A stretch of 58,731 nucleotides of DNA from a virus (lineage: Duplodnaviria > Caudoviricetes), in IMG/VR virus record IMGVR_UViG_3300023199_000106, positions 1 through 58,731 of that record, one strand, 5' to 3'. The notes under the pieces are model-generated. The model saw only the letters and a program-made list of their open reading frames with translations. It made no database searches and was not told the origin of the DNA. A program made the position numbers and the translations under genes. Positions 1 to 24,251 of the stretch are shown piece by piece. Each line of letters begins with the position of its first letter. Within the stretch, counting starts at the first letter, position 1.

Positions 1-137
1 GCCCATTCTGAATTGTGAGCCACCAGCTCAGTCCATTTTCTGGGCTGAGCTTCGAGCCAATCGAGTGCTTCTGAGCAAGCGCCAAGCTCGCGTGCACAGT
101 TGATCATTTCCTGTGTGATTAGGTAGTCAGTCATCAT
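1..137 (-). CDS. 5' half of 22-aa repeat protein paralog B (continues at 58393-58731 across the contig junction)
   Basis: ATG at 137 with GGAG RBS; reads MMTDYLITQEMINCARELGACSEALDWLEAQPRKWTELVAHNSEW, near-identical to the N-termini of 167-742 and 57047-57823. Confidence 0.85.
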   Translation of the reverse strand, partial: MMTDYLITQEMINCARELGACSEALDWLEAQPRKWTELVAHNSEW

Positions 138-166
138 TCTGCTCCTTATGAGATTAAAGAATACAA

Positions 167-742
167 TCACGATTCAATTGGACAATCGGGCCGTTTAGCC
201 ATGATCCGAGCCCGTTCGTCCGAATCGAGTCCGGTCAGATCGATCGGGCAGTCGGGCCGGTTGGTCATGACTCGCGCCCGTTCGTATGAATTAAGCCCGG
301 TCAGATCGATCGGGCAGTCGGGCCGGTGGGCCATGACTCGCGCCCGGTTGAATGAATTAAGTCCGGTCAGATCGATCGGGCAGTCGGGCCGCTCAGCCAT
401 GACCCAAGCCCGTTCGTTCGAATCGAGTTCGGTCAGATCGATCGGGCAGTCGGGCCGGTAGGTTATGACTCGCGCCCGTTCGAATGAATTAAGCCCGGTC
501 AGATCGATCGGGCAGTCGGGCCGTTTAGCCATGACTCGTGCCCGTTCGTCTGAATTAAGCCCGGTCAGATCGATCGGGCAGTCGGGCAGGTGGATAATCG
601 CCCAAAGAGCCCATTCTGAATTGTGAGCCACCAGCTCAGTCCATTTTCTGGGCTGAGCTTCGAGCCAATCGAGTGCTTCTGAGCAAGCGCCAAGCTCGCG
701 TGCACAGTTGATCATTTCCTGTGTGATTAGGTAGTTAATCAT
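167..742 (-). CDS. 22-aa tandem repeat protein, paralog A (6 repeats)
   Basis: N-terminal GAC..LDW domain followed by six GLNSxERAxVMxxRPDCPIDLT units; AAGGAG RBS. Confidence 0.9.
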   Translation of the reverse strand: MINYLITQEMINCARELGACSEALDWLEAQPRKWTELVAHNSEWALWAIIHLPDCPIDLTGLNSDERARVMAKRPDCPIDLTGLNSFERARVITYRPDCPIDLTELDSNERAWVMAERPDCPIDLTGLNSFNRARVMAHRPDCPIDLTGLNSYERARVMTNRPDCPIDLTGLDSDERARIMAKRPDCPIES

Positions 743-753
743 ACTTGTGCTCC

Positions 754-1533
754 TTATGTGAGATTTTCTACGTCTGCTATGATTTGTCGGCGTACAGTAG
801 TGTTTTCTTCTTCAAGCCAGTGAATTTCTTTTACTGAGTCCAAATCGATTTCATCTGCAATCCCGTTGATTTTATAGTCACGACCATAGAAGCCCCCACA
901 GCTGTCAATTTCATCGTTGTTTTCATTATATAAGATATAATCGTAGACCTCGTTAGTGAGGTATTGGTTATAAATCTCAACTTCACATTTCAAATAATAT
1001 GACACAAACTGTTCAAAAGATTGGAACTCACAGTCAACGCACTGGCCGTTATCCCAGCATTGTCGGACTAGAGGGAAGTCTTCAGGTTTGATGTCATACG
1101 TTTCTGCAGCGCGGGCTTTCGACACATAAATAAATCCAACGCGCCCTGAATCCCAATGACAGGCAAACGGGATGCAGCGCATCGTAATACCAGAGTGGTC
1201 ATACAAATACAGTTCGTTGATGACAAACAGCTCATCAAGTTTTTCAACAATGCGGTTGTAATAAGCTGCTCGCCAATTTTCGAGAGCATCAACGCTGTTA
1301 TGTTTTGCAAAAAATTCTTCAGCCTCACGTTCAAGATTTTCAAGAAAACCTTCGTGACCTTTGTTAATGAGCATTCTTTCGTAAAACTCTTCGATTGAAC
1401 CAGGTGTTCTAATGTCACCCAGAGAATAGTCAGAATGCCAACAAACCATCGTACCGATGTTGTCAGAGCATTTGCGAGGGTCTGGCGGGTTTAAATCCCG
1501 TTGTATTTTGAGAATGTGTGTGCGCTCTGTCAT
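754..1533 (-). CDS. hypothetical phage protein with LYLYDHSG...WDSG..GFIY motif
   Basis: 259-aa ORF, GGGGAG RBS; motif recalled from phage/ICE hypothetical proteins, function unknown. Confidence 0.8.
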   Translation of the reverse strand: MTERTHILKIQRDLNPPDPRKCSDNIGTMVCWHSDYSLGDIRTPGSIEEFYERMLINKGHEGFLENLEREAEEFFAKHNSVDALENWRAAYYNRIVEKLDELFVINELYLYDHSGITMRCIPFACHWDSGRVGFIYVSKARAAETYDIKPEDFPLVRQCWDNGQCVDCEFQSFEQFVSYYLKCEVEIYNQYLTNEVYDYILYNENNDEIDSCGGFYGRDYKINGIADEIDLDSVKEIHWLEEENTTVRRQIIADVENLT

Positions 1534-1625
1534 AATGTGTTCTCCCCCACGCCGTGAGGTACTTTGATAACTGCAAATAGTTTGTGCTCCTGAAGCAGTT
1601 TGGTTTTAAGGGATATGCTGATCAT
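1530..1625 (-). CDS. small hypothetical protein (31 aa)
   Basis: AAGGAG RBS, ATG at 1625, stop overlaps next start (ATGA). Confidence 0.4.
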   Translation of the reverse strand: MISISLKTKLLQEHKLFAVIKVPHGVGENTL

Positions 1626-1650
1626 GTGTTTTTGCTCCTTCGGGGTTCAT

Positions 1651-1684
1651 AAAAAATGCCCTCCCAGCCGAAGCTGGGAGGGCA
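1651..1684 (-). terminator. intrinsic terminator
   Basis: 12-bp stem TGCCCTCCCAGC, C(UUCG)G loop and T6 on - strand, just after the stop at 1691. Confidence 0.9.
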
Positions 1685-1690
1685 AGAAGA

Positions 1691-2434
1691 TCAGAAGTCG
1701 GTTTTGTCTTCGGCATCTTCGATTTCTTGATCCGGTTGTTTTGCACCACGAGACCAGAACAAGTCACGCGTTGTCCGTTGAACGGCCTTCCGATTTTGGC
1801 TGGCCTGCTGGTTCATCAATCGCCAGCCGGCTAGGCCGAGCGCATCCTGGCATCCTTTCATTAGATTAACGTCAGCGCCCTGCTCTTCGCACCAGTCAAG
1901 CAACTGCGCTATTTTAAGCGCCTGCTGGCGAGATGATTCGAAGTTAATCAAGCTGTTTTCGGCTCCGGCTTCGTTGCCGTTGTCACTATGCCGTTCAATC
2001 ATCTCTGCGTGGATACGCACCCAGTTCATGGCCGAGGCAAACTCGGCCTGGTAAGCCCGTACGAGCTGGTAGGCCATACCAGAAGCCAGGAAATCATTTC
2101 CTAGTGCCAGCTGCTTTTGAAGCGCATTGAGTGCTCTATTCATTTTTACATCGGGTGGGAGTTCCTCATCCCGTTGTTCGCGGTCTGCAAACACATCGTT
2201 GGCCAGCTCGAACAGCTTGTTGATGTTGTCCTGGGTCGGCACAATCGTCGGTTTGCCAGCTGCCGTCTTGGACCAACGGAATCCGTCGGGCAGGCCGGGG
2301 GACCGGTTTTGGAGGTCTTCGGCAGGCATAGTGGCTTCCCGGTCATCTCGTTGTTCTTTGGTGCGATCGTAATGGCTGCCAATCTCATCGAAAGGAGCGG
2401 TGCCGACAGAAGGAGGATTAAATACTACGTTCAT
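1691..2434 (-). CDS. hypothetical early protein (247 aa)
   Basis: start moved to MNVVF at 2434 (GGAGA RBS); followed by terminator. Confidence 0.8.
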   Translation of the reverse strand: MNVVFNPPSVGTAPFDEIGSHYDRTKEQRDDREATMPAEDLQNRSPGLPDGFRWSKTAAGKPTIVPTQDNINKLFELANDVFADREQRDEELPPDVKMNRALNALQKQLALGNDFLASGMAYQLVRAYQAEFASAMNWVRIHAEMIERHSDNGNEAGAENSLINFESSRQQALKIAQLLDWCEEQGADVNLMKGCQDALGLAGWRLMNQQASQNRKAVQRTTRDLFWSRGAKQPDQEIEDAEDKTDF

Positions 2435-2482
2435 AGTGTTCTCCGTTTTATTTGGATGATACGTGTCAAGATTGACACAAAA

Positions 2483-2524
2483 ACCCGCATGAATCCGACG
2501 CGGGCGGAAAAACCGCCCGCGTCG
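2483..2524 (-). promoter_or_regulatory. 42-nt hairpin + ATTCATGCGGGT element, copy 1
   Basis: - strand CGACGCGGGC-GGTTTTTCC-GCCCGCGTCG-G-ATTCATGCGGGT, 49 nt upstream of ATG 2434. Confidence 0.8.
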
Positions 2525-2612
2525 CGATGTCACACACAGGCGGTTGAATGCGACGACCCAATGACGTGGGTCGAGTGGTTCGAACAAGCCCAGCTTGATG
2601 CTGGGCTCATTC

Positions 2613-3011
2613 TCACTGCCCGCTTTCCATCGGGCGCTCGCCCGCGACGAACCCGGCGTGGCGGAACACGGACCGCTTGGTCACGGTTCCGTCGTCCGCG
2701 ACTTCTTCGACGCTCTCGCGCCGAGAAAACGCATAGAGCGGGATCAAATCGAATCTACGCAGCGCGCGTTCGAGGGGTGCCATCAAGAACGGTGCCCCGC
2801 CGATCATGACGAGGGGGTCCCCGTCCGCGACCTCGTCAACATCGGCGCTGGCGAGTTCCGCTAGCGCGGACGCTGCGGCGGCGATTTCCTCCCCACTGGG
2901 GAGGGAATTGAAAGTTAGGAGGCGGCGCACCGCCTCCTTGTCGCGGGGTTCGACAACCCCGGCGTCGGCTTGCTCAGCCGTCGCTGGGTGCTGGGTGAGG
3001 TTCAAAATCAT
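2613..3011 (-). CDS. Csx20/Csx15-like protein, candidate cyclic oligoadenylate ring nuclease
   Basis: start MILNLTQH at 3011 (AGGAG RBS); N-terminal H..T.EQ, central MIGG, C-terminal YAFSRRESVE...DG.V.K.SVFRH..F match my recollection of Csx20. Confidence 0.55.
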   Translation of the reverse strand: MILNLTQHPATAEQADAGVVEPRDKEAVRRLLTFNSLPSGEEIAAAASALAELASADVDEVADGDPLVMIGGAPFLMAPLERALRRFDLIPLYAFSRRESVEEVADDGTVTKRSVFRHAGFVAGERPMESGQ

Positions 3012-3021
3012 ATTTGATCTC

Positions 3022-3369
3022 CTAATAAAATTTGTGGCGGTCTTCGCCACCGTATGGGTTCGGCGACCAGCCGTCGCCATCCGGTTCTGGCGTGGCCGGC
3101 GGCGGGTTTCGCCGCTGCTCTTCGAGCGCCGCTAAGCGCTCGGCCTCCACCCGGTCGACGAGCTCCGGGCAGATTTTGCGCGCTGAGGCTGAGCCGCCGA
3201 GGCAGCAGATCAGGTCCTGCCCGCCCTCCGTGACCAATACGGAGAGTGGGTCCTCAGCGGCCAGCGCGCGCTGACACACGCCAGCCACCGCTTCGATTTG
3301 CTCGTCCGGGTACCGGACGAGCTCACGTTGGATCGCCGCCGCAACGGCGATCACCGAGGGGGCGCTCAC
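3022..3369 (-). CDS. hypothetical protein
   Basis: 115-aa ORF coupled to the upstream ORF in a GC-rich block. Confidence 0.65.
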   Translation of the reverse strand: MSAPSVIAVAAAIQRELVRYPDEQIEAVAGVCQRALAAEDPLSVLVTEGGQDLICCLGGSASARKICPELVDRVEAERLAALEEQRRNPPPATPEPDGDGWSPNPYGGEDRHKFY

Positions 3370-3557
3370 GAGGAGCGCCCCTTGCGCGCCAGCCGGTTGG
3401 CCCGGCGGCGGTTGGTGCGGGCTACGCCGTAGCCCGCGGGATCCGTCAGGCCGGCGTGTGCCAGCTTGGCGGGGTGGTCGGCCGGGAGGGCGTTGTACGC
3501 CTTCCGGGCCGTTTGTGTGTCGCGGCTGTTGACCGCGACTTCGGGTCTTGTTTTCAT
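3366..3557 (-). CDS. small basic hypothetical protein
   Basis: GGAGG RBS; overlaps both neighbours by 4 nt. Confidence 0.7.
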   Translation of the reverse strand: MKTRPEVAVNSRDTQTARKAYNALPADHPAKLAHAGLTDPAGYGVARTNRRRANRLARKGRSS

Positions 3558-3892
3558 AAATGCCTCCAGGTTGGTTGTCGTCTGTTGTTAAAAATGCCGG
3601 GTACGAGAACCCACATGATTTTAACCCTGTTGCCTTTCGATCTGTAGATCATTCCTTTCTCATAACCTGAGACGAACTTTGTGATAATTAGCAGCGCTGA
3701 AAATATCAGCCCGCCGACAACTGCTGCTGCCATGCCGGCAAATGTGCCGGAAAATGCAAGCATCATGCTGACAGTGGCAGCGATGTCGACAAGCAGATCA
3801 AAGCCAAGCAGCCTGCGTCGAACAAGCGTTGGCAGCTTTAAAATAAATATGAAAAAAGCAACAGCTGTTAAACCGCCCATGATAATCATCAT
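3554..3892 (-). CDS. membrane protein (about 3 hydrophobic segments)
   Basis: AAGGAG RBS; hydrophobic stretches. Confidence 0.8.
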   Translation of the reverse strand: MMIIMGGLTAVAFFIFILKLPTLVRRRLLGFDLLVDIAATVSMMLAFSGTFAGMAAAVVGGLIFSALLIITKFVSGYEKGMIYRSKGNRVKIMWVLVPGIFNNRRQPTWRHL

Positions 3893-3907
3893 GTACTCCT
3901 TGGTTTT

Positions 3908-4132
3908 TTAAATATACTCAGCAGCTTCGGCATGAAGCTCGTTAATGCGCCGATCAATGGCAATTATCAAACTGCCATTAGAAATCAAACGATTGCGCAT
4001 TTTGGTCAGTCTCTTGATTCTTTTTTGGATATTGCTAAAACGCTCAAGATCTGCGCCATAAAAACACCCGTCTTCACCATGATAATTGAAATAGTCTTCA
4101 GTGGGTGTTGCACTCATGCTTCTAGCCATCAT
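3908..4132 (-). CDS. hypothetical protein
   Basis: GGAG RBS; directly downstream of hairpin element copy 2. Confidence 0.7.
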   Translation of the reverse strand: MMARSMSATPTEDYFNYHGEDGCFYGADLERFSNIQKRIKRLTKMRNRLISNGSLIIAIDRRINELHAEAAEYI

Positions 4133-4161
4133 TCTGCTCCATGTTTAAAATAAAAGCACAA

Positions 4162-4203
4162 ACCCGCATGAATTACCGATGAACAGATTCACCGTTCATC
4201 GGT
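4162..4203 (-). promoter_or_regulatory. 42-nt hairpin + ATTCATGCGGGT element, copy 2
   Basis: - strand ACCGATGAAC-GGTGAATCT-GTTCATCGGT-A-ATTCATGCGGGT, 30 nt upstream of ATG 4132. Confidence 0.85.
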
Positions 4204-4233
4204 TAAAGCCAACTACGCCACCAACTTCGTATA

Positions 4234-5151
4234 TTACGCACCCAAGTACACTTCGAGGTCTGCAGGGGATAACCCATCCAGCTCTGAAGCCAGGAGCTCG
4301 TTGAAGCTGAGCGCATCGGGACTGGACTCACGGGCGGATATGGTGTCACGGCGTGCGTTCCAGGCGTGGAACCAGTAGGGGTCGCGTGGGTGCTCCGGGC
4401 CGCGCTGCGGCTCTCCGAGCAGGTCTGAGAACAGACGATGTGGTTCTTCAGCAGCTTTGGGCAGGAAGATTTCAAAGCCCGACGCGGCGGCAATGAGTTC
4501 AGGTGACAAGTCAGAAATGGTGTAGCCGCAGGTGTCGAGCAGGAACGTTTGAAAGCGCTGCACAGCTTGCCAGTAGCACCACGGACCGTAAGTCGAGCTG
4601 ATGCGCTGCTTGGTTCTGCGGTCGTAGTATTTAAGGCGCCAGCGCGTGAAGTGAGGCTCCCAGGTGATGTAAGGGTTCTTGGGATTGAACCAAGCGATGC
4701 AGTCGAGCGGTGCACGATTAGGCACTTGGAAGTCGGAATAGAAGTGCGGCGAGTATGTGCGATGTCGCATCTCGTTCATAAATTGTACGAATTTAAGAAA
4801 AGCATCCTGGCTTGGTAAGAAGAAGAATGGACCAGGTGCAGGCTTGCGGAATACCAGCATGTGAATGATGTCAGCAAATAACATGGGCTGCACGTACTGG
4901 TTGCGCTTGAGCAGAATATTGAATTCGATGTACCAAGGCACAGGACCAAGGGTGTAATAGAACGGGCACGTTGCGTGCTGGAGTGCGTAACCACCTCTGC
5001 GTGACTTACGGTTTGGGCCGTAGTCAACGAAGGGCCAGCCGTGCTTGGTACAGTGTAGCTGACCAGTCCAGGGGTTGTAGGTGAGGCGATTACGGAGAGT
5101 TGCATAGGATGCAATGGATACAGTGCGTTGCGATGCGTATGGCTTAGTCAT
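4234..5151 (-). CDS. possible degenerate HNH-AP2-type DNA-binding protein
   Basis: LTYNPWTG resembles the N-terminus of phage HNH endonucleases; YITWEPHFTRWRLKY..RISSTYG resembles an AP2 domain; no intact HNH core; has its own promoter. Confidence 0.5.
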   Translation of the reverse strand: MTKPYASQRTVSIASYATLRNRLTYNPWTGQLHCTKHGWPFVDYGPNRKSRRGGYALQHATCPFYYTLGPVPWYIEFNILLKRNQYVQPMLFADIIHMLVFRKPAPGPFFFLPSQDAFLKFVQFMNEMRHRTYSPHFYSDFQVPNRAPLDCIAWFNPKNPYITWEPHFTRWRLKYYDRRTKQRISSTYGPWCYWQAVQRFQTFLLDTCGYTISDLSPELIAAASGFEIFLPKAAEEPHRLFSDLLGEPQRGPEHPRDPYWFHAWNARRDTISARESSPDALSFNELLASELDGLSPADLEVYLGA

Positions 5152-5208
5152 GGCGGTTTTGGGGGCTAGGGGTTATTTAAGAATGTAGCAACTATAAGGG
5201 CTGAGGGT

Positions 5209-5237
5209 AGTATATCAGTGCAACTCAATGGAAGCAA
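5209..5237 (-). promoter_or_regulatory. sigma70-like promoter
   Basis: TTGCTT-17 nt-TATACT upstream of ATG 5151. Confidence 0.65.
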
Positions 5238-5240
5238 GAG

Positions 5241-5518
5241 AAGTGTGTTAACTTCTGAGACATTTATTTTTCTAAGGATTTCAATTAGTTATATTGTTTT
5301 ATACCCCTAAAAAACCAGTTAACTCAGAAAAACGCCAAATTGGGCTGCGAAAAAAGTTAAAAATTAAATCGTGTTTTCTGCCGCTGGCATTTTCGTGTTT
5401 TTCTGAGTTAAGCCCCTTTTTTGCTGTTTTATCCGTGTAACCTATTGATTTTACTGACAACAAAATGTCTCAGAAGTTAACACACTTGGTTTTCACTGTA
5501 AAATCAATAAGTTACACG
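5241..5518. repeat. AT-rich region with nested and interleaved inverted repeats
   Basis: perfect 25-bp IR 5241-5265/5463-5487; perfect 15-bp IR 5319-5333/5397-5411; 21-bp IR with 1 mismatch 5434-5454/5498-5518. Confidence 0.9.
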
Positions 5519-5544
5519 AAGTATACAAATATACAGTATTTTTT

Positions 5545-5816
5545 GCGTAACGTTTCAGTTGCAGAGCGTTGCGTAACGTTTCAGTTGCAGAGCGTTGCGT
5601 AACGTTTCAGTTGCAGAGCGTTGCGTAACGTTTCAGTTGCAGAGCGTTGCGTAACGTTTCAGTTGCAGAGCGTTGCGTAACGTTTCAGTTGCAGAGCGTT
5701 GCGTAACGTTTCAGTTGCAGAGCGTTGCGTAACGTTTCAGTTGCAGAGCGTTGCGTAACGTTTCAGTTGCAGAGCGTTGCGTAACGTTTCAGTTGCATAT
5801 TTTGCTGCAACTGAAA
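5545..5816. repeat. 26-bp tandem repeat array (iteron-like)
   Basis: GCGTAACGTTTCAGTTGCAGAGCGTT x9 identical plus a 19-nt partial copy (to 5797), then an inverted TGCAACTGAAA at 5806-5816; no spacers. Confidence 0.95.
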
Positions 5817-5880
5817 AACACCGCTCCCCTCGAGCCCCACGCCGTGGTGCCTGGTTGCCCTCGGGCCTTCGGCTGGCAAT

Positions 5881-5911
5881 AAAAAAGCCCCAGTGCACGA
5901 GTCACTGGGGC
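5881..5911 (-). terminator. intrinsic terminator
   Basis: GCCCCAGTG/CACTGGGGC stem plus T6 on - strand after the stop at 5919. Confidence 0.8.
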
Positions 5912-5918
5912 TGTTGCT

Positions 5919-6116
5919 CTACCGGGACTTGAGCTTTCGCTCATAGTCCCGGATCTCTTCGAGCAGCTGTGGGTCGCACAGCCGCTCAGCCGGGCGTTGC
6001 TTGGTGGCCCACCAGGCACCGACGCAGGCGGCTCCTACGAGGAGGCCCAATAGGGGGAAGATCGCCCCAGCCGCGAAGGCTAGGGCGATATAGAGGATGA
6101 CCCGGCTACCGCCCAT
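5919..6116 (-). CDS. small membrane protein
   Basis: two hydrophobic segments; followed by terminator. Confidence 0.6.
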   Translation of the reverse strand: MGGSRVILYIALAFAAGAIFPLLGLLVGAACVGAWWATKQRPAERLCDPQLLEEIRDYERKLKSR

Positions 6117-6346
6117 GGCGGCACCGGGTCCAGATGTGCCAGGCCGCCCAAAGGGCGGCTGGCACGAGGCCTGGCCATACTACATTAATGGCCATTAATG
6201 TTCTCCTTGTGAAGGAGAATTCACAGTGTGTAAAGAGCCACCATAAAGGTGGCGGCAAATCCGCTCCGCGGCGGCAGCGTGCCACGCGCGGATATAATGT
6301 ACGACCAGGGCACCCTGGTCGTCTAGGAACAAGACGGAGAACTCGC

Positions 6347-6712
6347 TCATAGCGAGTTCTCCGGGGCGTTAAATACTGGGTAGACGTCTACCCAGATATG
6401 CCCATTTCGATCCTTTCGTTGCTTGCCGCGTGGGGCAAGCGTGGTCCCTAGCGCCTTCGCTAGAAGGCGAACGGTTATTTCCCCGCTATATTCGGGGTTT
6501 ATTTTGCAGTTCAGTACGTCACCGTACTGATTTGTCCTGCGGTTGACACGAGCGATAACGCTTTCATCGAACTGCTGTTCGATGTGCTCGTCGACCTGGG
6601 CGATGGCTTTGTCGGCCATGAGTTCTTTGATCGAGGCCCTGAGGGCCTCGATCGTTTCATCGCGCTCGACGAGGGCTGCGATCAGATCGGCCTTGGTTTG
6701 GCGGATCGCCAT
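6347..6712 (-). CDS. hypothetical early protein (N-terminal coiled coil)
   Basis: AAAGGAG RBS; first gene of the leftward early arm. Confidence 0.8.
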   Translation of the reverse strand: MAIRQTKADLIAALVERDETIEALRASIKELMADKAIAQVDEHIEQQFDESVIARVNRRTNQYGDVLNCKINPEYSGEITVRLLAKALGTTLAPRGKQRKDRNGHIWVDVYPVFNAPENSL

Positions 6713-6767
6713 GGGACTTCTCCTTTATTGAATGTGCCAAGCCGGGCCAATCCCGACTTGATCGAAG

Positions 6768-6809
6768 ACCCGCATGAATTATGAGCGCACAGTTTCACCG
6801 TGCGCTCAT
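6768..6809 (-). promoter_or_regulatory. 42-nt hairpin + ATTCATGCGGGT element, copy 3
   Basis: - strand ATGAGCGCAC-GGTGAAACT-GTGCGCTCAT-A-ATTCATGCGGGT, 56 nt upstream of ATG 6712. Confidence 0.85.
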
Positions 6810-7013
6810 TTTTTTTGTGTCTCGGAGAAAAGAAGGTTCATTATGCTGCTAGGGACTCAAGTGTCTGGGGCGTTTGGGCCTGAAATTTGTAGGGTGGGGG
6901 GTCTTTGGCTTTGTAGGGTAGGAGCAACGCACACCTCGTCACTTTAATTTCCCAAGTAATTCCCTCGCACCTATCGCGCTGGACTGCGCTGCTCTTAAAA
7001 CCCTTTTTGCGAC

Positions 7014-7042
7014 TTGACATAAGGCGCCTAATAGAACACAAT
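7014..7042 (+). promoter_or_regulatory. sigma70-like promoter of the rightward arm
   Basis: TTGACA-17 nt-CACAAT upstream of 7063. Confidence 0.55.
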
Positions 7043-7062
7043 ACTTACAGTCCTTTTCGGGA

Positions 7063-7380
7063 ATGCAGGCTATGATCGTGTTCTTTACAAATAATACCGC
7101 TGCTGGCAATTCAGCCGCTTACCCTGTCGTAGCTCAACGAGGAGCGCTTTTGGCCCTTAACATCGAAGGGTTGGGTGCCGCGACTTGTCAGCTCCAGCGA
7201 AAAACCCCTAATGGCACATTTATCCCAGTGATTTTCGGTACTTTGGCAGACATCACGCTGGATGGTCATTACATCATCGATGGGCTGTCCGGTACCTACC
7301 GAATAGCCCAAACCGGCACAGCTGATGGGCTCTACGCCTCCCTCGAAACTGAGAATGCTGCCTTGGCTTCGGCTCAATGA
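7063..7380 (+). CDS. hypothetical, probable virion protein
   Basis: 105-aa beta-rich ORF coupled (ATGA) to 7377. Confidence 0.7.
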   Translation: MQAMIVFFTNNTAAGNSAAYPVVAQRGALLALNIEGLGAATCQLQRKTPNGTFIPVIFGTLADITLDGHYIIDGLSGTYRIAQTGTADGLYASLETENAALASAQ

Positions 7381-9884
7381 TCCGATCAGCTATCAGATCT
7401 GCCTTAAGACCCGCTCTGCGTTCAGCCTTCGGAACGTATGAAGTATCTACCTTGCGTGAACGTTTGATTGCGTCTTTATTTAAGACTCATGAAGGAGCGA
7501 TGTTTGACGTATCTGTCGAGGGAACTCGGTTTACAAAATCTGCTGGGGATGTGGAGGCTGTGTCGGATGGAGATAATTTAAGGCTACTCCTTGACATCAG
7601 TCAAAATCTGAACCTGTCAGAACATTCTATCTGGTCTGACCCTCCGAATTTTGTAGGGGGTTCCTGGGCGGATAATGGTGATAACTCATATACCTATAAC
7701 GGAGTGGACTCCGGGTCTGATACCCTACTCTACCAAAGCGGCCACCTTGAAGATAAATTATTTCGAATTGGGTTTACAGCATCTGGGGTTACGTCAGGGA
7801 GTGGCTTGGTTCGAGCTTTCGGTAACGTTAATTCAACGTGGGATAGTAACGGTGAGCAGGAACGGTACCTTATTATAGGTAATGGGAATCTTGGGTTTTC
7901 TGGGATCTCACTGAACTCTGGTACAACCGTAGCAGATGTATCCACGCAACAAGTGCTGGGGGCGCATGCGCAGATTTCTCCGACTGGTATTTATAAAACA
8001 GATGGGGGAGTGCATTATCTACAGTCCTCAGGTACTGCTCAACTTACTGTTGGGTTTGTTTCGTCTCTTGGTTCAAATTCCACAGTGAGCTATGTTACCG
8101 CAGATGGGATTACTCACCTCACTGGCCAGACTGTTGGTGCCAACTATACTCCTCCTATCGAAGATTATCATGTCCTGATTATCTACGATGACGTGTATAC
8201 GGCGGAGCAGCTTGCGTTGGTTGAAGAGTATTTGACTGCTGCTGTTCAGGTTCAGCATCCGATGGCGGCGAGCATACCTGCAGGTTATTTCGACACAAAT
8301 ACAGACTCCGGGGCTGAAAGAGTTATTCAATGGAAAGGAGCGGATACAAAGCCATTCATCATCCATGTGGATACAGAAGCGACGTCATCTACCGCTACTG
8401 TTTCAGATAGTGACCAGTTCATTCTCTGCACCATTGGCACCGGATTTTCATTTGATGTTGACTGGGGGGATGGCAGTGGGGTTGAGTCCTTAACTGAGTC
8501 AGATTTTACAACTTTCAACGGCAGTGACACGGGGTTCGGACATACGTACGCTGCTCCAGGAGAGTACACGATTGCAATTACAGGGGAGTTCCCCCGCATG
8601 CGCGGTGGGGAGAACACAGATCATGGTAAGATCATTGAAATCAGGGACTGGGGGAGCCACGAGTGGGACGAAATGTGGCTTACCCTCTCAAACACTTATC
8701 GTCTGGAGCTCACTGAACGTGCAGTGATTATCCCACCGATTACTCCGAGTGTGACAAGGTGGCATCGGTTTACACAGCAGTGCGCAGCTCCGCGGCATCC
8801 TCCATACGACGTATCGAGCGCCACTATGCTGGACCGTATGTTTTATCTGGCTGATCTGGAGACTGCCCCACGGTTGCGCACCGGCGCATGTGTGAACTTC
8901 CACAATTTTTTTCGAGGGTGCGAATTTCTGGAAGGTCCGATCCCTACGTATGATATTTCCAGCGCTGAGGATCTATACCGGTTTTTCCGCGGGTGCTTCC
9001 TGCTTACTTCTGATGATATTCCCTCTTGGGCGACAGGGCATGTCCGCGGCATGCACATGATCGTTGCGGATTGCCCGCTAATAACCCGCGTGCCCAGCAC
9101 CTGGGCATTTGATTCCATCGGAGAAGAGTTCACACCTGAATATACAACCCATGCGGAACAAAACAACGCAGTAGGGATGTTTGCCAGTTATACTGGTGAT
9201 CTCGGTGTTTCTGGGAGTGACGCGGCTTGTAGTGTAGCGGATGTCAGTGAGCTAAACTTTTCCCCCCTGGAGAATATCAGATCCTTGTTTTACCGTAACG
9301 CTGGAGCTACAGATATATCTAATATTGAGTTTACTTCAGCCACAATAGCGGATCAGATATTTTATGGTTCTGTACTTGAAACAGTTGACGGGCTTTCTTT
9401 CCCGGCTTTGACTTCTGCATTTAGTATGTTCGAAGGCTGCGTAGATCTTGTATCCGCCACCGGGTTGGAATTCCCGGTGGTTACAATTGCTAGTCGGCTA
9501 TTTGCCAATTGTACGGCCTTGACGACGCTAGAGATCACGATCCCGCTCGCCACTTCGATTTCAGGCATGATTGATGGCTGTCCATTATTGTCAAACGTGC
9601 TGCTCCACGGGTGTCGAACTACTTTCCATTTGACGGACCGGCAAATGTCTCGCAGCAGTATAATGGCCTTAATAGATAGTGTTGCTGATGTTACCCCTTC
9701 ATTAAGGTCAATGTATTTGGGAGGTAATCCTGGGTACGCAGACCTTACTTCCGAAGACATAAATGCTGCGCTTGACAAAGGATGGGTGGTTTCTGAATAC
9801 TATGCTCCTGAAGTAGCAGATTTAGGAATTGAAGATTTTCTCCCATACATTAACCAATCAACTCTTGTGAATTTTCCTCCATGA
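7377..9884 (+). CDS. putative receptor-binding/adhesin protein with PKD-like domain and BspA/DUF285-like leucine-rich repeats
   Basis: FDVDWGDGS...HTYAAPGEYTIAITG (PKD-like); repeated MF/FF.GC..L and D.SS motifs. Confidence 0.65.
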   Translation: MIRSAIRSALRPALRSAFGTYEVSTLRERLIASLFKTHEGAMFDVSVEGTRFTKSAGDVEAVSDGDNLRLLLDISQNLNLSEHSIWSDPPNFVGGSWADNGDNSYTYNGVDSGSDTLLYQSGHLEDKLFRIGFTASGVTSGSGLVRAFGNVNSTWDSNGEQERYLIIGNGNLGFSGISLNSGTTVADVSTQQVLGAHAQISPTGIYKTDGGVHYLQSSGTAQLTVGFVSSLGSNSTVSYVTADGITHLTGQTVGANYTPPIEDYHVLIIYDDVYTAEQLALVEEYLTAAVQVQHPMAASIPAGYFDTNTDSGAERVIQWKGADTKPFIIHVDTEATSSTATVSDSDQFILCTIGTGFSFDVDWGDGSGVESLTESDFTTFNGSDTGFGHTYAAPGEYTIAITGEFPRMRGGENTDHGKIIEIRDWGSHEWDEMWLTLSNTYRLELTERAVIIPPITPSVTRWHRFTQQCAAPRHPPYDVSSATMLDRMFYLADLETAPRLRTGACVNFHNFFRGCEFLEGPIPTYDISSAEDLYRFFRGCFLLTSDDIPSWATGHVRGMHMIVADCPLITRVPSTWAFDSIGEEFTPEYTTHAEQNNAVGMFASYTGDLGVSGSDAACSVADVSELNFSPLENIRSLFYRNAGATDISNIEFTSATIADQIFYGSVLETVDGLSFPALTSAFSMFEGCVDLVSATGLEFPVVTIASRLFANCTALTTLEITIPLATSISGMIDGCPLLSNVLLHGCRTTFHLTDRQMSRSSIMALIDSVADVTPSLRSMYLGGNPGYADLTSEDINAALDKGWVVSEYYAPEVADLGIEDFLPYINQSTLVNFPP

Positions 9885-10810
9885 TTACTGCAGTTGAGAC
9901 TGTATATTTAGGTGGGGCCCCTTCAGGGGAGATTACTCCAGGATACCTGGTAAAAACTACTGATGATGGGTTGACGTGGGCGACAGTTAAGGATGATTTT
10001 TCGCACCGCGTGGTTGGAATAGCGGTCACAAGTTCAGCACTGATAGTCAAAACTATCCTCGGTTCGAATGGGTATTTTTCTTCCTCTGATGGCGGAGCTA
10101 CCTGGACTTCAGGATATGATGCAGGGGACATTACAACGCACGATAACTTGGAGGCTATTGGGGATGATATTTACGCTTCAGGATTTAATGCCTCCTCTGT
10201 ATTTAAAATGTACCACTCAGATGACGATGGGGCCTCATGGGCGGCCTATTCGGTTCCTTCCGGATATAATGAATGGTTCTGGTTGAGTCCTTTAGGATTG
10301 ACTTTCGGACATTCGACGCTTGCTCAGATTACGTATAAAGAGGATGAAGGGGCTTCATATTTAACGCTGGCAATGCCTATTGTTGGGGAGTACTCAGGTA
10401 CAATAGCCCGTCTGATCGATGGCCGGTTGGTAGTTTCCCCTGTTTTGTATTCACCTTCTGGGGTAGCTAGTGCTAAAGTGTACGTTTCGAACCACGACTG
10501 GGAAGCTTCAGGCGTAGAATGGACAGAGCTGACTACGCTGGCAACGTCGGTTAATTCCGATCCAGGAACCTATGGTGTACGCCGCCTCTGGCACAAAAAC
10601 GGAGTTTTGTGTGCCGAAATAATTGAATGGAAAACGGGGTTTGGTACTGCATACAGCTACTATGTATCAACTGACTCTGGTGCTACTTGGACTGATATGG
10701 TACGATCTACGTTAGCCCAAACCGTGTATTTAGGGGGTAACGAGCTGATGTGGAGCGACGTAATGGATGGCAACGGCGTCTTATCTGTGATAGCATACGA
10801 CTCAATTTAG
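9881..10810 (+). CDS. BNR/Asp-box repeat (beta-propeller, sialidase-like) protein
   Basis: TTDDGLTW, SSDGGATW, SDDDGASW, STDSGATW. Confidence 0.75.
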   Translation: MITAVETVYLGGAPSGEITPGYLVKTTDDGLTWATVKDDFSHRVVGIAVTSSALIVKTILGSNGYFSSSDGGATWTSGYDAGDITTHDNLEAIGDDIYASGFNASSVFKMYHSDDDGASWAAYSVPSGYNEWFWLSPLGLTFGHSTLAQITYKEDEGASYLTLAMPIVGEYSGTIARLIDGRLVVSPVLYSPSGVASAKVYVSNHDWEASGVEWTELTTLATSVNSDPGTYGVRRLWHKNGVLCAEIIEWKTGFGTAYSYYVSTDSGATWTDMVRSTLAQTVYLGGNELMWSDVMDGNGVLSVIAYDSI

Positions 10811-10821
10811 GAGGATACAGT

Positions 10822-11007
10822 ATGGTCGATCTGAGAGATCTAATTCGAGACGTGGCTATTGAAGAAAGTGGCCAGCGCAGCGCTGGTGGCACTGCTCAGG
10901 TAGGCGAGATCATTGGCATACTCGGCCGCAGATGGCGCGGAGTACCGCTGTGGCAAGCAATGAAAGAGTTTTTGGCTATTCGTACTCGAGCGGGGAAAGT
11001 AGAATGA
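10822..11007 (+). CDS. small hypothetical protein
   Basis: AGGAGG RBS, start MVDLRD; stop overlaps next start. Confidence 0.7.
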   Translation: MVDLRDLIRDVAIEESGQRSAGGTAQVGEIIGILGRRWRGVPLWQAMKEFLAIRTRAGKVE

Positions 11008-11750
11008 CTACATTATTCAAAGTAATCATATTGTCAATTGCCTTGGCCGGTTGCGCCACGGGCAAAATCAACGAGCAGTCAATGCAGGCGCATGATATGC
11101 AGCTGCGGGCGATCCATCAGCAGGCGGAGTCCTACCAATCCACGATAGCTGAGACTGCTGCGGGCTGCCGTGATGACATGTGTCGTGTGGCCGTGATGCT
11201 GGCCGGCGCGCTCGGCCGGCCTGAGATGCGGATTTCTGCCCCTCAGCTACGCTCCCCTGGCGAAGAGTTCGCGCGTGCATTTTCACCGATCGCAAACCTA
11301 GCTAGCGCAGGTCTTCAGGTGTGGGGTGCGGGCTGGCTGGTCGAGCGCAGTGGTGAGCAGATGGTCAATCTAGCCGGTTCTATTGGTGGCATTGTCGGAC
11401 AAGTACAGGGTACTGTAGATAATAGCGTAACGGTCGGTGGGAATCTCGGTGATACGGACCAGTCGACGACTGTCGGCGGGAATTTTGGCGCCACAGATCA
11501 GTCGGTGGCGGTAGCGGGAAATCAAGGTGATACGGACCAATCTGTCGGCGGCAACCAAGGTGATACGCGTGGTGACGTGGTGGGTCGCGATCAGATAGGC
11601 TCCGTCGAGAACGGCTGTATCGGGCCTGATTGCCGAGCCGTCAGCCCTGGTCCGATTGACCAGTCAGATAACTCAGATAACTCCGACAATTCAGATAATT
11701 CAGATAATTCTGACAATTCAAACAGCTCTGTAGGTGACGACGATGGGTAA
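11004..11750 (+). CDS. lipoprotein with G/N/D/S-rich repeats
   Basis: signal peptide with lipobox LAGC from ATG 11004; VGGNxGDTDQS repeats and (SDN)6. Confidence 0.8.
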   Translation: MTTLFKVIILSIALAGCATGKINEQSMQAHDMQLRAIHQQAESYQSTIAETAAGCRDDMCRVAVMLAGALGRPEMRISAPQLRSPGEEFARAFSPIANLASAGLQVWGAGWLVERSGEQMVNLAGSIGGIVGQVQGTVDNSVTVGGNLGDTDQSTTVGGNFGATDQSVAVAGNQGDTDQSVGGNQGDTRGDVVGRDQIGSVENGCIGPDCRAVSPGPIDQSDNSDNSDNSDNSDNSDNSNSSVGDDDG

Positions 11751-11901
11751 TTTTGTACTGATTTATCTGGCTGGTGTGCTGGTGGCGTCCGTAGTGCTCT
11801 TTATGCGCCACGATCATTATGAGGTACTGGATGCGCTGTGGCAGGCGTTGCGCTGGCCGTGGCATCTCGCTCTCTGGGTATATGAGCGAGTGCGACGATG
11901 A
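11743..11901 (+). CDS. small membrane protein (52 aa)
   Basis: MGNFVLIYLAGVLVASVVLF...; overlaps both neighbours; too short for the ORF track. Confidence 0.6.
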   Translation: MGNFVLIYLAGVLVASVVLFMRHDHYEVLDALWQALRWPWHLALWVYERVRR

Positions 11902-12173
11902 TGCGCGCTGCGCCGTGGTGGTGTGGAGTCGTTGTTGTTTTGTGCGCCATGCTGTGGGTAGGCGCGCTCTCGGAGGGGTATGTCATGCGTATGCTCGGAG
12001 CCGCGCTGAAGTGCTGCGCTGGTCTGTCGATCGGATATTATGCACATCGCCATCTAGTGATGCAAGGTGAGCGGATACAACGCTGGGACGAGGGCGCGTC
12101 GGCCATGTCGATGAGAACTGCTAGGGCTGTGCTGATGAGCGCCTGCGCGATTGCGGTCGCGATAGCCGTATGA
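11898..12173 (+). CDS. putative holin
   Basis: 91 aa, 3 hydrophobic segments, directly upstream of the endolysin. Confidence 0.6.
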   Translation: MMRAAPWWCGVVVVLCAMLWVGALSEGYVMRMLGAALKCCAGLSIGYYAHRHLVMQGERIQRWDEGASAMSMRTARAVLMSACAIAVAIAV

Positions 12174-12793
12174 GGACGGTCGCGCTCATGACACTGCTCG
12201 CATGTGCGGCTGTATCAGCACAGGTACCAGAGCGAGCGTATCAATATCAGCGCATGGCGCTCCAGGAGTGGCACACCACATTCGGCCCTGGTGCGCCGAC
12301 AGGTACGCTCGCTGCACAGATCCACCAGGAGTCTGGATGGCGCAGTGATGCGCAGAGCCGGTACGCACTTGGGCTCGCACAATTCACCGCCGACACTGCG
12401 TCAGATATGGCGCGATTGCATCGCAGCCTAAGACCGGCTGACCCCGGTGATCCGCGTTGGGCACTGCGGGCACAGGCGCAGTACATGCGTGCGCTGGTGT
12501 CACGATACGACGATAGTGGAGAGTCTTGGCTCATGGCTCTGGCCGGCTACAATTCAGGGCCTGGATGGACCGATCGCAGCCGTAGAGTATGCGCGTCTAT
12601 GTCGTGTTGGTGCGACCCACGACGGTGGGCGGGAAACGTTGAGCACGCTGTGCATAGGCGCCATGCGGCGGCTGCTGTGCGCGAGAATCGTCATTACGTG
12701 AGCCAAATTATCCGTACTCACTCGCCGCTATATGCTGAGGCTGGCTGGGGGGCTGTCGTCGATGTTCCGCTGAATTGGAGCGTGCAGCGATGA
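12170..12793 (+). CDS. endolysin, SLT-family lytic transglycosylase with N-terminal signal
   Basis: AQIHQESGW (catalytic E), GLAQF, ALAGYNSG, ENRHYV. Confidence 0.9.
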   Translation: MRTVALMTLLACAAVSAQVPERAYQYQRMALQEWHTTFGPGAPTGTLAAQIHQESGWRSDAQSRYALGLAQFTADTASDMARLHRSLRPADPGDPRWALRAQAQYMRALVSRYDDSGESWLMALAGYNSGPGWTDRSRRVCASMSCWCDPRRWAGNVEHAVHRRHAAAAVRENRHYVSQIIRTHSPLYAEAGWGAVVDVPLNWSVQR

Positions 12794-13794: not shown

Positions 13795-14282
13795 GAAGCA
13801 ACGTTACTTTATTGGCAGACCACGCTGATGCTCGGGCGCGTCGTCTAAACGCTATTGAGGCTATCGCTGTACGTGGCATGCGGACAAAAGAGGCAGCGGC
13901 ATTTGCTGGTATAGAACCTGCAACGCTGCGAAATTTGCTGAATGATGAGCGGGTTCAAAGCTACATCAAGCAGATGCAGGCTGCGCATGCCGAAGCCCTC
14001 AACGTGCGTCGTGGGGATGTCATTCGAGGCATGTTGGATGCCATTGACCATGCCAAGCTGGTCAATGATCCAAGCACCGAGATCCGTGGGTGGGAGGCCA
14101 TTGCCAAGCTCCAGGGGTACAATGCACCTGAAAAACACCTACACGATTTGCCTGATGATACGAAGCGGCTTCTTGAAGCTATGCAGAACATGAACGACGC
14201 TGACGTTGCCAAGCTGGCCAATATGGACGATTTGATTGACCTGATACCTGGCAAAGACTTTAAGGTAGTCAGCAGTGAATAG
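13791..14282 (+). CDS. terS: terminase small subunit
   Basis: HTH-like EAAAFAGI; GWEAIAKLQGY; directly upstream of TerL. Confidence 0.75.
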   Translation: MRSNVTLLADHADARARRLNAIEAIAVRGMRTKEAAAFAGIEPATLRNLLNDERVQSYIKQMQAAHAEALNVRRGDVIRGMLDAIDHAKLVNDPSTEIRGWEAIAKLQGYNAPEKHLHDLPDDTKRLLEAMQNMNDADVAKLANMDDLIDLIPGKDFKVVSSE

Positions 14283-22972: not shown

Positions 22973-24251
22973 AAGTCAGACTAAAAGAATGCCGGGTTTT
23001 CCAGGAGGGGTTAATAACGTTTTCCGAGAAGACTCCCTTCCAGATGAGCAGCTGCGGAAGGCAGTAAATGTTGATCTTCTCCCGGGAGGGAAATTACGTC
23101 GGCGGTCTGGGTATACGAGGCGCCTAGATTTGTCTGACGCTCGCTCAGGAGCTTATTTTTTGGGCAGCTTGTACTTAGCAAACCAAGGCGATTTTATTCG
23201 GGTCGACTTAAATGACTATTCAACTGACGTTATCGCCAATGTTTCTCCGGTTGCTTATCTGAGTTATGCAGAGCAGGCAGGAAACTTATTCGTATCGGAT
23301 GGGGTTTCACAGGCATTTAGAGTTACTTCTGCTGGGGATGTAGTTTCTTGGTCGTCTGAGCAGCCGTCAGGGCAGCCATCTTTAGCCTCAGATTCTCCTG
23401 GAGGGCTTCCGGAAGGGATGTACCAGGTTGCTATTACGTATCTCCGTGGGAGTGAGGAGTCTGGAACTACTCAAGCTGCGGAAGTAACGCTTTCATCGCC
23501 TGGAAAAATAGAGGTCACTGATATTCCTGCTCCTGCTGACCCTTCAATTACTCATGTTCGTGTATATGTAAGTCATACGAACGGAGAAGTTTTATACGCC
23601 CACAGCAAGCTGGCGCCTGGGGTATCGTCATTTAGTATTTCTTCTTTGCCTGCGGGAAAAGCACTGGAGACTCAGTTCCTTGACCCTCTTCCTGCGGGGC
23701 ATATTGTAGCTGCGTATAAAGGGCGAATATTCACCGCTGTGGGGCATGATCTCTGGTATTCTGAGCCGTTTCGATACGGTCTTTGCCGAGTTTCTCAGAA
23801 TTTCATAAGTTTTGATAGTCGCGTAAACATGGTACGACCAGTAGAATCAGGCATTTATATCGGAACGGAAAAAAGAACTATCTTCTTGTCTGGCCCCTCC
23901 CCCATGGAGTTTAGAGTTTTAGGGGTGCATTACGCAGGGGTCATAGAAGGAACAGATACATCAGTGCCTTCAAGTGTATTTGCGTTTGATAGTCTTAATA
24001 CGGGAAATGTGGCTGTATGGTGGTCGAAGAGCGGATCATTTATTGTAGGTTTAGCTAGTGGGCAGGTTATCCCTTTACGGGATGGCGAGTTAGCAGTGCC
24101 TGATTTCGTTCGCGGCAATACGATGCTTCGAGAAAAGGACGGGGTGCGTAGCATAGTTTCGGTGCTTCAACAGCCAATGTCTGACCATTCAGCTTTAGTG
24201 TCTCACGACCAGGTGACTGCCGAAGTACATCGTAATGGAATTACTATTTAG
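22959..24251 (+). CDS. tail nozzle/stabilization-like protein
   Basis: FPGGVNN, AVNVDL..GKLRRRSGY, YKGRIF, LWYSEP. Confidence 0.65.
   Translation: MAGFESQTKRMPGFPGGVNNVFREDSLPDEQLRKAVNVDLLPGGKLRRRSGYTRRLDLSDARSGAYFLGSLYLANQGDFIRVDLNDYSTDVIANVSPVAYLSYAEQAGNLFVSDGVSQAFRVTSAGDVVSWSSEQPSGQPSLASDSPGGLPEGMYQVAITYLRGSEESGTTQAAEVTLSSPGKIEVTDIPAPADPSITHVRVYVSHTNGEVLYAHSKLAPGVSSFSISSLPAGKALETQFLDPLPAGHIVAAYKGRIFTAVGHDLWYSEPFRYGLCRVSQNFISFDSRVNMVRPVESGIYIGTEKRTIFLSGPSPMEFRVLGVHYAGVIEGTDTSVPSSVFAFDSLNTGNVAVWWSKSGSFIVGLASGQVIPLRDGELAVPDFVRGNTMLREKDGVRSIVSVLQQPMSDHSALVSHDQVTAEVHRNGITI

Follow-up and report, generated by a model that had tools for sequence, protein, structure and literature searches.

A covarying hairpin and 3′ box ahead of the early genes of KPP25-related podoviruses, a candidate site of transcription elongation control

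Phage early regions consist mostly of orphan genes, and how they are regulated is unknown outside a few model phages. Among the closest described systems are the nut sites of phage lambda, in which a boxA sequence (consensus CGCTCTTA) precedes boxB, a hairpin with a 5-bp stem and a GNRA-like pentaloop of fixed sequence (GAAAA), and the put sites of phage HK022, which consist of two hairpins. In phage T7, the early mRNA is cut by RNase III at intergenic sites that form irregular helices of about 20 bp with internal loops. Phage N4 (Schitoviridae) uses hairpin promoters with a stem of 5 to 7 bp and a 3-nucleotide (nt) loop centered at −11, which are read on the template strand by a T7-like virion polymerase (PMC4496689). 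In the T4-type phages RB49 and phi1, about 50 elements per genome, termed PeSL (promoter-early stem-loops), carry strong sigma-70 −35 and −10 boxes together with a stem-loop at varying places (PMC2839356, with terminator assays in its Supplementary figure S1). Here we describe a hairpin-and-box element that occurs three times in the early region of an uncultured tailed phage known from IMG/VR virus record IMGVR_UViG_3300023199_000106, all 58,731 bases of which (estimated completeness, 91%) form the window analyzed here. Judged from its sequence, the element probably controls the handling of host RNA polymerase or of the transcripts that this polymerase makes.

On the minus strand of the window, one self-contained element, about 51 nt long, is present in three copies. 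Element 1 (positions 2476 to 2526) has stem arms at 2524 to 2515 and 2505 to 2496, the loop GGTTTTTCC between them, and a 12-nt box, ATTCATGCGGGT, at 2494 to 2483, followed by TTTTGTG; positions 2524 to 2483 read CGACGCGGGC-GGTTTTTCC-GCCCGCGTCG-G-ATTCATGCGGGT. Element 2 (4155 to 4205) begins 30 nt past the stop codon of a gene for a protein of 305 amino acids (aa), and 29 nt separate the end of its box from the start of a 74-aa gene; its sequence from 4203 to 4162 is ACCGATGAAC-GGTGAATCT-GTTCATCGGT-A-ATTCATGCGGGT. Element 3 (6761 to 6811), which reads ATGAGCGCAC-GGTGAAACT-GTGCGCTCAT-A-ATTCATGCGGGT from 6809 to 6768, lies in a divergent intergenic region 55 nt 5′ of the first early gene (121 aa). 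In each copy, an inverted repeat, perfect over 10 bp, encloses a 9-nt GGTNNNWCY segment and is followed by one purine and the 12-mer. An earlier note on this DNA had reported three elements of identical geometry, with stems that differ in sequence and yet pair perfectly, and both observations hold for all three copies. At the loop ends, GG and CY add two further pairs, both G-C in copy 1 and one G-C and one G-U in copies 2 and 3, so that the full stem has 12 bp and the loop 5 nt; as the note had also pointed out, the G-U pair of copies 2 and 3 becomes A-C on the plus strand.

The 12-mer has three exact matches in the record, all on the minus strand and none on the plus strand, when by our arithmetic about 0.007 would be expected by chance for one 12-mer in 2 × 58,731 bases, and the same sequence read backwards has none. 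Near matches with up to two mismatches are at chance level (7 versus 5.04 expected). When 61-nt pieces were folded as RNA, copies 1 to 3 gave −31.1, −20.6, and −22.8 kcal/mol (z scores of −4.5, −3.9, and −4.6), and none of 200 shuffles was as stable. The predicted structure was the 12-bp stem with its 5-nt loop for two of the three copies, while copy 3 gained a thirteenth pair that leaves a 3-nt loop. The boxes end 48, 29, and 55 nt before start codons at 2434 (the 247-aa gene, 3′ of element 1), 4132, and 6712, each of which has a GGAG-type ribosome site; the note had put these distances at 30 to 56 nt.

A second genome carries the element at the same places. G001, an IMG/VR record of 65,844 bases that was reached through its primase (69% identity), is syntenic with the window throughout, with proteins that are 30 to 70% identical, and holds three copies in exactly the same register (N10-loop9-N10′-R-12-mer). 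These lie 5′ of the orthologue of the 247-aa gene (g1, the counterpart of element 1), 3′ of the orthologue of the 305-aa gene (g2, of element 2), and 5′ of the orthologue of the first early gene (g3, of element 3), which are the three operon positions occupied in the window. Conservation in a relative, in line with a check that the earlier note had proposed, is borne out. Orthologous stems have 4 to 6 of 10 bases in common, and the 10-bp stem is perfect in five of the six copies, the exception being g3 with 8 of 10 pairs. Sequence 5′ of the stem and more than about 7 nt past the box has diverged between the genomes, and the register of hairpin and box has been kept in six of six copies. Because the flanks have diverged almost wholly, the retained pairing is under selection, and because the register stayed fixed while its surroundings changed, hairpin and box appear to be read as one unit.

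The alignment of all copies supports a real, covarying cis element, as the note had proposed. In this sample of six sequences from two genomes, in which orthologous copies are related by descent, 95.8% of the cells of the 12-pair helix pair, both sides have changed at 9 of 12 pairs, and the observed covariation score was reached by none of 500 shuffles. When the partner was slid by one to three columns, pairing fell to 26 to 43%. The invariant columns are C12, G13, T15, C20, and G22 around the loop; ATG, G, and GT within the box, which is partly diverged in G001 (TCTCATGCGAGT, ATCAATGTGGGT, and TCCGATGTGGGT); and the G seven bases past the box. It is this G, conserved in six of six copies, and the TTTGTG-like bases that follow the 12-mer (TTTGTG itself in most copies) that extend the element past the 42 nt of the earlier note. 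Columns 13 and 21 form a G-U pair in five copies and a G-C pair in the sixth, and the loops are TTTTT, TGAAT, TGAAA, TGAAT, TGGAT, and TAAAC. Laid out in this way, the element has a lower stem conserved in pairing alone, an apex in which C-G, G·U, and G-C pairs and then a U are fixed, and a 3′ part made of one purine, a 4-nt variable spacer, and a single-stranded box of the form ATG-Y-G-R-GT-TTGTG. All six copies are oriented with the genes and lie in intergenic spacers, 29 to 67 nt ahead of a start codon. This architecture, with a structure-only lower stem, a sequence-specific apex, and a fixed 3′ box, corresponds to no catalogued RNA family and exactly to none of the classic phage signals.

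The surroundings of the copies are also conserved. In both phages, element 3 is followed by four small genes, an intrinsic terminator (T1), tandem repeats, a sigma-70-like promoter, the 305-aa gene, and element 2, after which come a block of small genes, element 1, the 247-aa gene, and a second intrinsic terminator (T2). T1 (5886 to 5912, minus strand; a 10-bp stem followed by TTTTTATT) closes the unit begun at element 3 and has a counterpart at the same position in G001 (locus L019, 12056 to 12031). T2 (1657 to 1684, minus strand; a 12-bp stem followed by TTTTTT) lies 3′ of the 247-aa gene, with the same arrangement in G001 (L019, 6869 to 6844). The ribosome site and ATG of the next open reading frame (ORF) come within about 30 nt of T2 in both phages (window 1625 to 1657; L019, 6815 to 6845), which leaves no room for a promoter, so polymerase must pass T2 if the following genes are to be transcribed. 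In the window, the block ahead of element 1 is closed by a further hairpin, t′ (2582 to 2612, minus strand), which lies over the stop codon of a 155-aa gene about 55 nt 5′ of the element, has 13 pairs (2 of them G-U) and a poor T tract, and was unlisted by the terminator scan.

The promoter candidate (5191 to 5218, minus strand; CTGATA-16-TATAGT) stands 40 nt 5′ of the 305-aa gene, with CTGATA-16-TATACT at the same place in G001 (L019, 11378 to 11351). Promoter-like sites are no commoner than in shuffles, so it is the shared position that carries this call. If it is correct, the transcription unit that contains elements 2 and 1 is of host type. Between these two elements, the phages carry different genes apart from a 112-aa gene that both have, and a homologue of the 155-aa protein of the window, 56% identical, occurs in a distant relative. 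In G+C content, the blocks that separate the elements do not stand out. Between T1 and the promoter, the window has a tandem array (5491 to 5849) of at least 10 mostly identical copies of a 26-bp unit, which may be replication-origin iterons or a binding array; at this position G001 has a different short tandem repeat, of the GTTGCAAC CAGTCA type.

Given these host-type promoter and terminator signals, and given that no phage polymerase was found, we rank first, and tentatively hold, the view that the element is an RNA-level site of elongation control in transcripts of host RNA polymerase, where it would load or pause the polymerase and bring about antitermination at the conserved terminators. 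In this scheme, the element would act in nascent early mRNA. Its hairpin and box would jointly bind a factor, or the polymerase itself, and the fixed register together with the pair-wise conservation of the apex argues that one factor reads both. Binding would take place at a hairpin-stabilized pause, probably near the conserved Y-G step 9 to 10 nt past the stem, a geometry drawn from that of the consensus pause. The polymerase would then pass the intrinsic terminators that follow each copy, namely T1 after element 3, t′ after element 2, and T2 after element 1, and genes beyond them, including the replication genes, would become expressed.

By analogy, such an element would work most like a nut or put site. 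It shares with these a short hairpin and a conserved single-stranded box, carried in several copies on the sense strand of early transcripts before intrinsic terminators that must be passed; the predicted terminators T1 and T2 and one sigma-70-like promoter candidate hold the same positions in both phages. Its pentaloop is of the UGAAW type in four of six copies (UGAAU in copy 2 of the window and in g1, UGAAA in copy 3, and UGGAU in g2), which recalls lambda boxB. Several points nevertheless weigh against elongation control of this kind. The order of hairpin and then box is the reverse of that in lambda nut; nothing is conserved 5′ of the stems, where boxA would stand, and the 3′ box reads ATGYGRGTTTGTG, which is not boxA-like. 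The stem has 12 bp against the 5 bp of boxB, and the loop is not fixed, copy 1 having TTTTT. There is no obvious need for read-through of T1, which has a promoter after it, and the promoter 5′ of element 3 is weak and not conserved as a sigma-70 site in G001. In addition, the stems are free of G-U pairs (see below), the known copies number only six in two genomes, and no N-like, Q-like, or NusG-like gene was found among the ORFs scanned with Pfam and PHROGs. The element further differs from put in having one hairpin instead of two, and its phage differs from the lambdoids in being a lytic-type podovirus with its own replication module. The ops site of RfaH, also compared, has the 12-nt consensus GGCGGTAGnnTG; by our alignment the box matches 6 of its 10 specified positions, and no KOW or NGN family that would mark a NusG paralogue was found among the ORFs scanned.

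Whether RNA or DNA is the acting molecule can be approached through the pairs themselves. The invariant apical bases sit as pairs, and the G-U at columns 13 and 21 exists on the sense strand and is an A-C mismatch on the opposite strand; these apical pairs hint at RNA on the sense strand, in agreement with the strand preference proposed in the earlier note. The lower stems hint, weakly, in the other direction. Across six copies, the 10-bp stems contain 58 Watson-Crick pairs, 2 mismatches, and no G-U pair, whereas T1 and T2 of both phages (four terminators) have 4 G-U in 44 pairs (one-sided P of about 0.03 by our own arithmetic). This fits selection on DNA complementarity somewhat better than selection on RNA. 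A count of G-U-containing hairpins per strand was set aside, being confounded by the tandem array and by G+T skew.

The same perfect inverted repeats, with no G-T in 58 paired cells, could mark a DNA-level structure outside transcription, that is, a cruciform or single-strand hairpin with a box for a nickase, primase-helicase, or recombinase, such as an oriT nic site, a single-strand initiation signal, or a phage nick site. A hairpin beside a conserved flank is the layout of a relaxase nic site, and the iteron-like 26-bp array at 5491 to 5849 is nearby. Against this stand the co-orientation of all six copies with the genes in short spacers just before start codons, the apical G-T that is a mismatch on the other strand, and the lack of any HUH, relaxase, or nickase family among the ORFs scanned. 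Furthermore, the three sites are 1.7 to 2.6 kb apart in one operon, with no obvious role in replication. We regard a role of this kind as very unlikely.

Intergenic position within operons, sense-strand orientation, and a fixed register of hairpin and box would equally suit a site of RNA processing or stability, at which an endoribonuclease of host or phage would cleave the polycistronic early mRNA within the single-stranded box, leaving the upstream fragment with a protective 3′ hairpin and uncoupling the expression of neighboring blocks of genes. The T7 sites are the model here, and they resemble the element in being structured, covarying, and intergenic within an early operon transcribed by host polymerase. 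Perfect hairpins that have no T tract are common between the early genes of the wider phage group, and a 3,068-aa virion protein has a predicted zincin-like domain with weak structural matches to YbeY endoribonucleases (Z, 5.5 to 7.1). The distance to the ribosome site, which varies from 29 to 67 nt, argues that the element is not a translational operator and is also compatible with processing. However, element 3 and g3 precede the first gene and so have no message 5′ of them that a hairpin could protect. A stem of 12 bp is too short for RNase III, and the element, unlike the T7 sites, has an unbroken helix of 12 bp and a 3′ tail of specific sequence. The window has an A/U-rich motif of the RNase E type after the stem that is not kept in G001, and the stems are without G-U pairs. 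On balance, processing seems a possible but somewhat unlikely function. Termination is not the function suggested by the sequence, because R-ATTCATG and similar bases follow the stems in place of an immediate T tract; over the elements, the terminator scan returned only an alternative 8-pair fold in copy 1 (2505 to 2483) that is impossible in the other copies.

Repeated boxes ahead of phage early gene blocks are most often promoters, and each element is followed by genes and then by a terminator. The box could be a phage-specific promoter core that is read by the host core polymerase with an unrecognized phage sigma factor or appropriator, or by an unrecognized polymerase, and the hairpin could either end or insulate the upstream unit, as in PeSL, or be the recognition structure, as in N4. 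By our reading, patches with bacterial spacing are present at columns 14 to 19 (GTGAAW) and, 17 nt on, at columns 37 to 42, with the invariant G of column 49 at the would-be +1. Strictly Watson-Crick stems would suit a DNA hairpin. On the other side, the box (nATGYG) is not a sigma-70 −10 sequence, copy 1 is without the −35-like loop, and the invariant apical bases are laid out as base pairs and not as a hexamer. A sigma-70 promoter scan found no site inside any of the three window or three G001 elements, and by eye none of the sigma-70, sigma-54, ECF, or FliA types fitted all six copies. Element 3 would need to fire before any phage protein exists, and genes past T2 would still require read-through. 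An open reading frame from the invariant ATG was likewise considered as a leader peptide and rejected as chance: such frames run from 8 to more than 19 codons without a ribosome site, and the R/W change preserves bases and not a residue. Taken together, we consider the promoter reading, like processing, possible but somewhat unlikely.

Of its two models, PeSL resembles the element in joining a stem-loop to a conserved motif in spacers before orphan early genes, at the edges of variable blocks, and the differing gene content between elements, together with the 56% identical homologue in a distant relative, recalls the cassette shuffling described for PeSL (PMC2839356). The element differs in having no sigma-70 consensus, a fixed register, and three copies. 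With N4, the element has in common three early-region copies, stems that covary around a few fixed apical bases while the rest is free as long as it pairs, a short variable spacer, and a giant virion-carried protein; the spacer of about 5 nt from stem to ATG recalls the 4-nt ruler of N4 (PMC4496689). It departs from N4 in its 12-bp (or 10-bp) stem and its 5-nt (or 9-nt) loop, in apical G-T pairs that occur on the sense strand only, and in the polymerase, which was not found. The earlier note had offered three functions, namely an antitermination site, a site of RNA processing or stability, and an N4-style promoter, and had seen no recognizable phage RNA polymerase. In accord with the latter, Pfam and PHROGs scans of the giant protein and about 45 other ORFs, mostly of about 60 aa or more, returned no RNA polymerase or sigma family. 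Because of this negative result, because the geometry differs from that of N4, and because the folded segment of the giant protein is not polymerase-like, the N4-style promoter is now the least supported of the three functions.

The giant virion protein (3,068 aa; 35028 to 44234) was examined for signs of an N4-type polymerase. It has no Pfam, PHROGs, or PDB sequence match to a T7-like RNA polymerase, and DxDxD and HD[SAC] motifs are absent from its whole length by regular-expression search. DUF7831 occupies residues 1424 to 1534, its C terminus matches a virion-protein PHROG, and its ESM Atlas feature neighbors are the polyvalent-protein clusters LPD1, LPD38, and LPD39. With gp01, its counterpart in phage KPP25, it has only residues 2636 to 3037 (the C-terminal 400 aa or so) in common. 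Residues 1 to 1714 are, by reading, rich in hydrophobic Gly/Ala stretches and charged coiled-coil-like sequence. Residues 1715 to 2640 have 416 homologues, which among those listed are mostly parts of proteins of 2,000 to 3,500 aa, and were folded from a 30-sequence alignment (predicted local distance difference test [pLDDT], 76.5). The best Foldseek match of this model was the PhiM1 pre-infection ejectosome (8vb2_A; E, 0.03; probability, 0.99), whereas the N4 virion RNA polymerase (9pnt) ranked 17th at noise level (probability, 0.12). VIA-align gave a Z of 13.2 for 8vb2_A (root-mean-square deviation, 5.2 over 269 residues) and of 5 to 7 for zincin-like proteins, including YbeY, over model residues 20 to 230. 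Among 50 rows of the wide VIA-align search there was no polymerase, with the model barely covered outside residues 19 to 229 and 573 to 856. The predicted zincin/YbeY-like domain (about residues 1735 to 1945) has HHEMGE in place of HExxH, and the PhiM1 ejectosome-like domain spans about residues 2277 to 2577. On these models, residues 1715 to 2640 resemble an ejectosome protein and a zincin and not a polymerase, and the protein as a whole is best described as a polyvalent ejection protein. A structure-dependent start or entry signal that dispenses with an N4-type polymerase can be imagined, in which host polymerase is directed to an extruded DNA hairpin or an RNA hairpin, or the first transcripts are cut there, by a factor that the giant protein delivers with the DNA (its zincin/YbeY-like domain, for example) or by one of the orphan early proteins, such as that of 305 aa, but we consider it very unlikely.

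Returning to elongation control, the candidate trans factors are orphan early proteins. The 305-aa gene (4234 to 5151, minus strand), directly 5′ of element 2, and the first early gene (6347 to 6712, minus strand), 3′ of element 3, are candidates only. The 305-aa protein, which the earlier note had called AP2-like, is 37% identical to its G001 orthologue and has no homologue elsewhere; Pfam, PHROGs, and PDB gave no match, and its model was unusable (pLDDT, 35.7). The 121-aa product of the first early gene has no family match in Pfam or PHROGs, and the 247-aa and 259-aa proteins have no PDB match. N-family antiterminators are small and diverge fast; ten early ORFs are without such a match in Pfam or PHROGs, several ORFs below 60 aa being unscanned. 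Separately, a 63-aa early ORF (3366 to 3557) has an arginine-rich C-terminal stretch (RTNRRRANRLARKGRSS) resembling N-protein RNA-binding motifs, with no homologue found in G001 at an E of 1e−5.

In the data reached, sequence searches indicate that the element is confined to a narrow clade. A covariance model built from the six copies was run on 33 sources, namely the window, four G001 loci, bases 1 to 50000 of KPP25, an unrelated contig (L004), and 26 of 28 metagenome loci, the other two being duplicates of G001. It scored elements 1 to 3 at 60.8 (E, 4e−15), 66.1, and 62.6 bits and returned only the six training copies; the KPP25 bases and the 26 loci, which hold relatives of the primase (22 to 48% identity), were without a copy. 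The next-best matches were the opposite strand of two hairpins and then a site in a coding-looking stretch of locus L035 (15 bits; E, 0.096). A fourth, degenerate 12-mer site in the window (3609 to 3620) was rejected, having no hairpin and scoring 9.1 bits (E, 5.2). An IMG/VR scan for the loop ends plus the 12-mer gave 11 loci, none with a stem in register in the printed flanks, and a looser pattern gave G001 and one chance match (L024). Scanning one genome for each of 185,579 species gave 60 loci, which at best had 6 of 10 stem pairs and are chance matches, and a search for related loci with the neighboring 835-aa gene found nothing. Taken by itself, the core ATGYGRGT shows no enrichment over shuffles (7 and 10 sites versus 7.1 and 7.9). 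Rfam 15, searched with window bases 1 to 12000 on both strands under permissive filters, gave five matches, all far below the gathering score; the sole match over an element was anti-hemB at 2475 to 2556 (20.6 bits versus a gathering score of 49.5; E, 0.42). No Rfam family claims the element, which the earlier note had taken to be new. L004, a phage contig with only a 24% terminase match, has two copies of AGCATTCATGCGGGTT at a distance of 220 nt, both in a non-coding, hairpin-free end region (12294 to 12537); the presence of the same 12-mer there is probably coincidence, although a shared host factor may be involved.

The element belongs to a small clade of KPP25-related podoviruses. By head protein (51% identity), the nearest cultured relatives of the window are the Pseudomonas phages KPP25 and phiR18, of the genus Kochitakasuvirus, for which no transcription study was found in the parts of the literature available to search. 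Megablast with bases 1 to 8000 found no match among GenBank phages, and Acidovorax phage AP1 was discarded for comparison as uninformative, being temperate and having only head genes in common. In KPP25 (locus L015), 9-bp hairpins with different stems and GGA loops stand ahead of the first two early genes (24021 to 24041 and 24322 to 24342), each with TTCATYCAC about 16 nt downstream; these may be analogous to the element, although the covariance model does not match them. Ahead of the first early gene, the window (6850 to 6990) and G001 (L019, 13800 to 13960) both have conserved C-rich blocks (such as CCCCCCACCCTACAAATTTC) as well as CTTGAGTCCC. KPP25 has similar C-rich blocks (L015, 23920 to 24020), and such sequences may be part of a promoter region or a Rho-loading site. 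The early region is also rich in perfect hairpins in general. Specifically, 13 of at least 9 bp lie in the 5.3 kb from 1600 to 6900, where shuffles predict 0.1, compared with 8 in the remaining 51.8 kb; ORFs contain several of them (e.g., 6335 to 6363, 6629 to 6653, and 3300 to 3437), and the G001 early region has 3 against 0.27 expected.

The remainder of the genome is arranged around this region. Orphan early genes run on the minus strand from about 7100 down to 1 and continue over the record ends into a replication block (58,362 to 45,634) with a D5-like primase-helicase, a helicase, an intein-bearing PD-(D/E)XK exonuclease, and DNA polymerase A, while virion genes occupy the plus strand from 7063 to 44,234 (intein-bearing terminase, portal, major head protein, head-closure protein, and the 3,068-aa protein). 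Repeats of 66 nt (22 aa; RPDCPIDLTGLNS.ERARVMA) make up an ORF at 167 to 742, whose paralogues stand at the opposite end of the record (57853 to 58362, 58393 to 58692, and 57047 to 57823). This repeated family probably broke the assembly there, and because the record ends inside it, by synteny with G001, little seems to be missing. The terminase large subunit (14275 to 16902; 875 aa versus 544 aa in G001) and the exonuclease (50491 to 52212; 573 aa versus 265 aa in G001) contain LAGLIDADG/Hom_end homing-endonuclease domains, which are most likely inteins without counterpart in G001.

Our analysis describes an element that is compact, well delimited, and strongly covarying and that occupies three equivalent operon positions in each of two diverged genomes. 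It is small enough for work with synthetic DNA and could be a portable regulatory part. Its biological meaning depends on how it is read. If it is a promoter, it would imply an unrecognized sigma factor or polymerase. If it is a structure-dependent entry signal, podoviruses would have invented early gene control through hairpins a second time, independently. If, as we tentatively prefer, it acts in antitermination or pausing, control of the nut/put type would extend to a non-lambdoid group that is related to the therapeutic Kochitakasuvirus phages of Pseudomonas.

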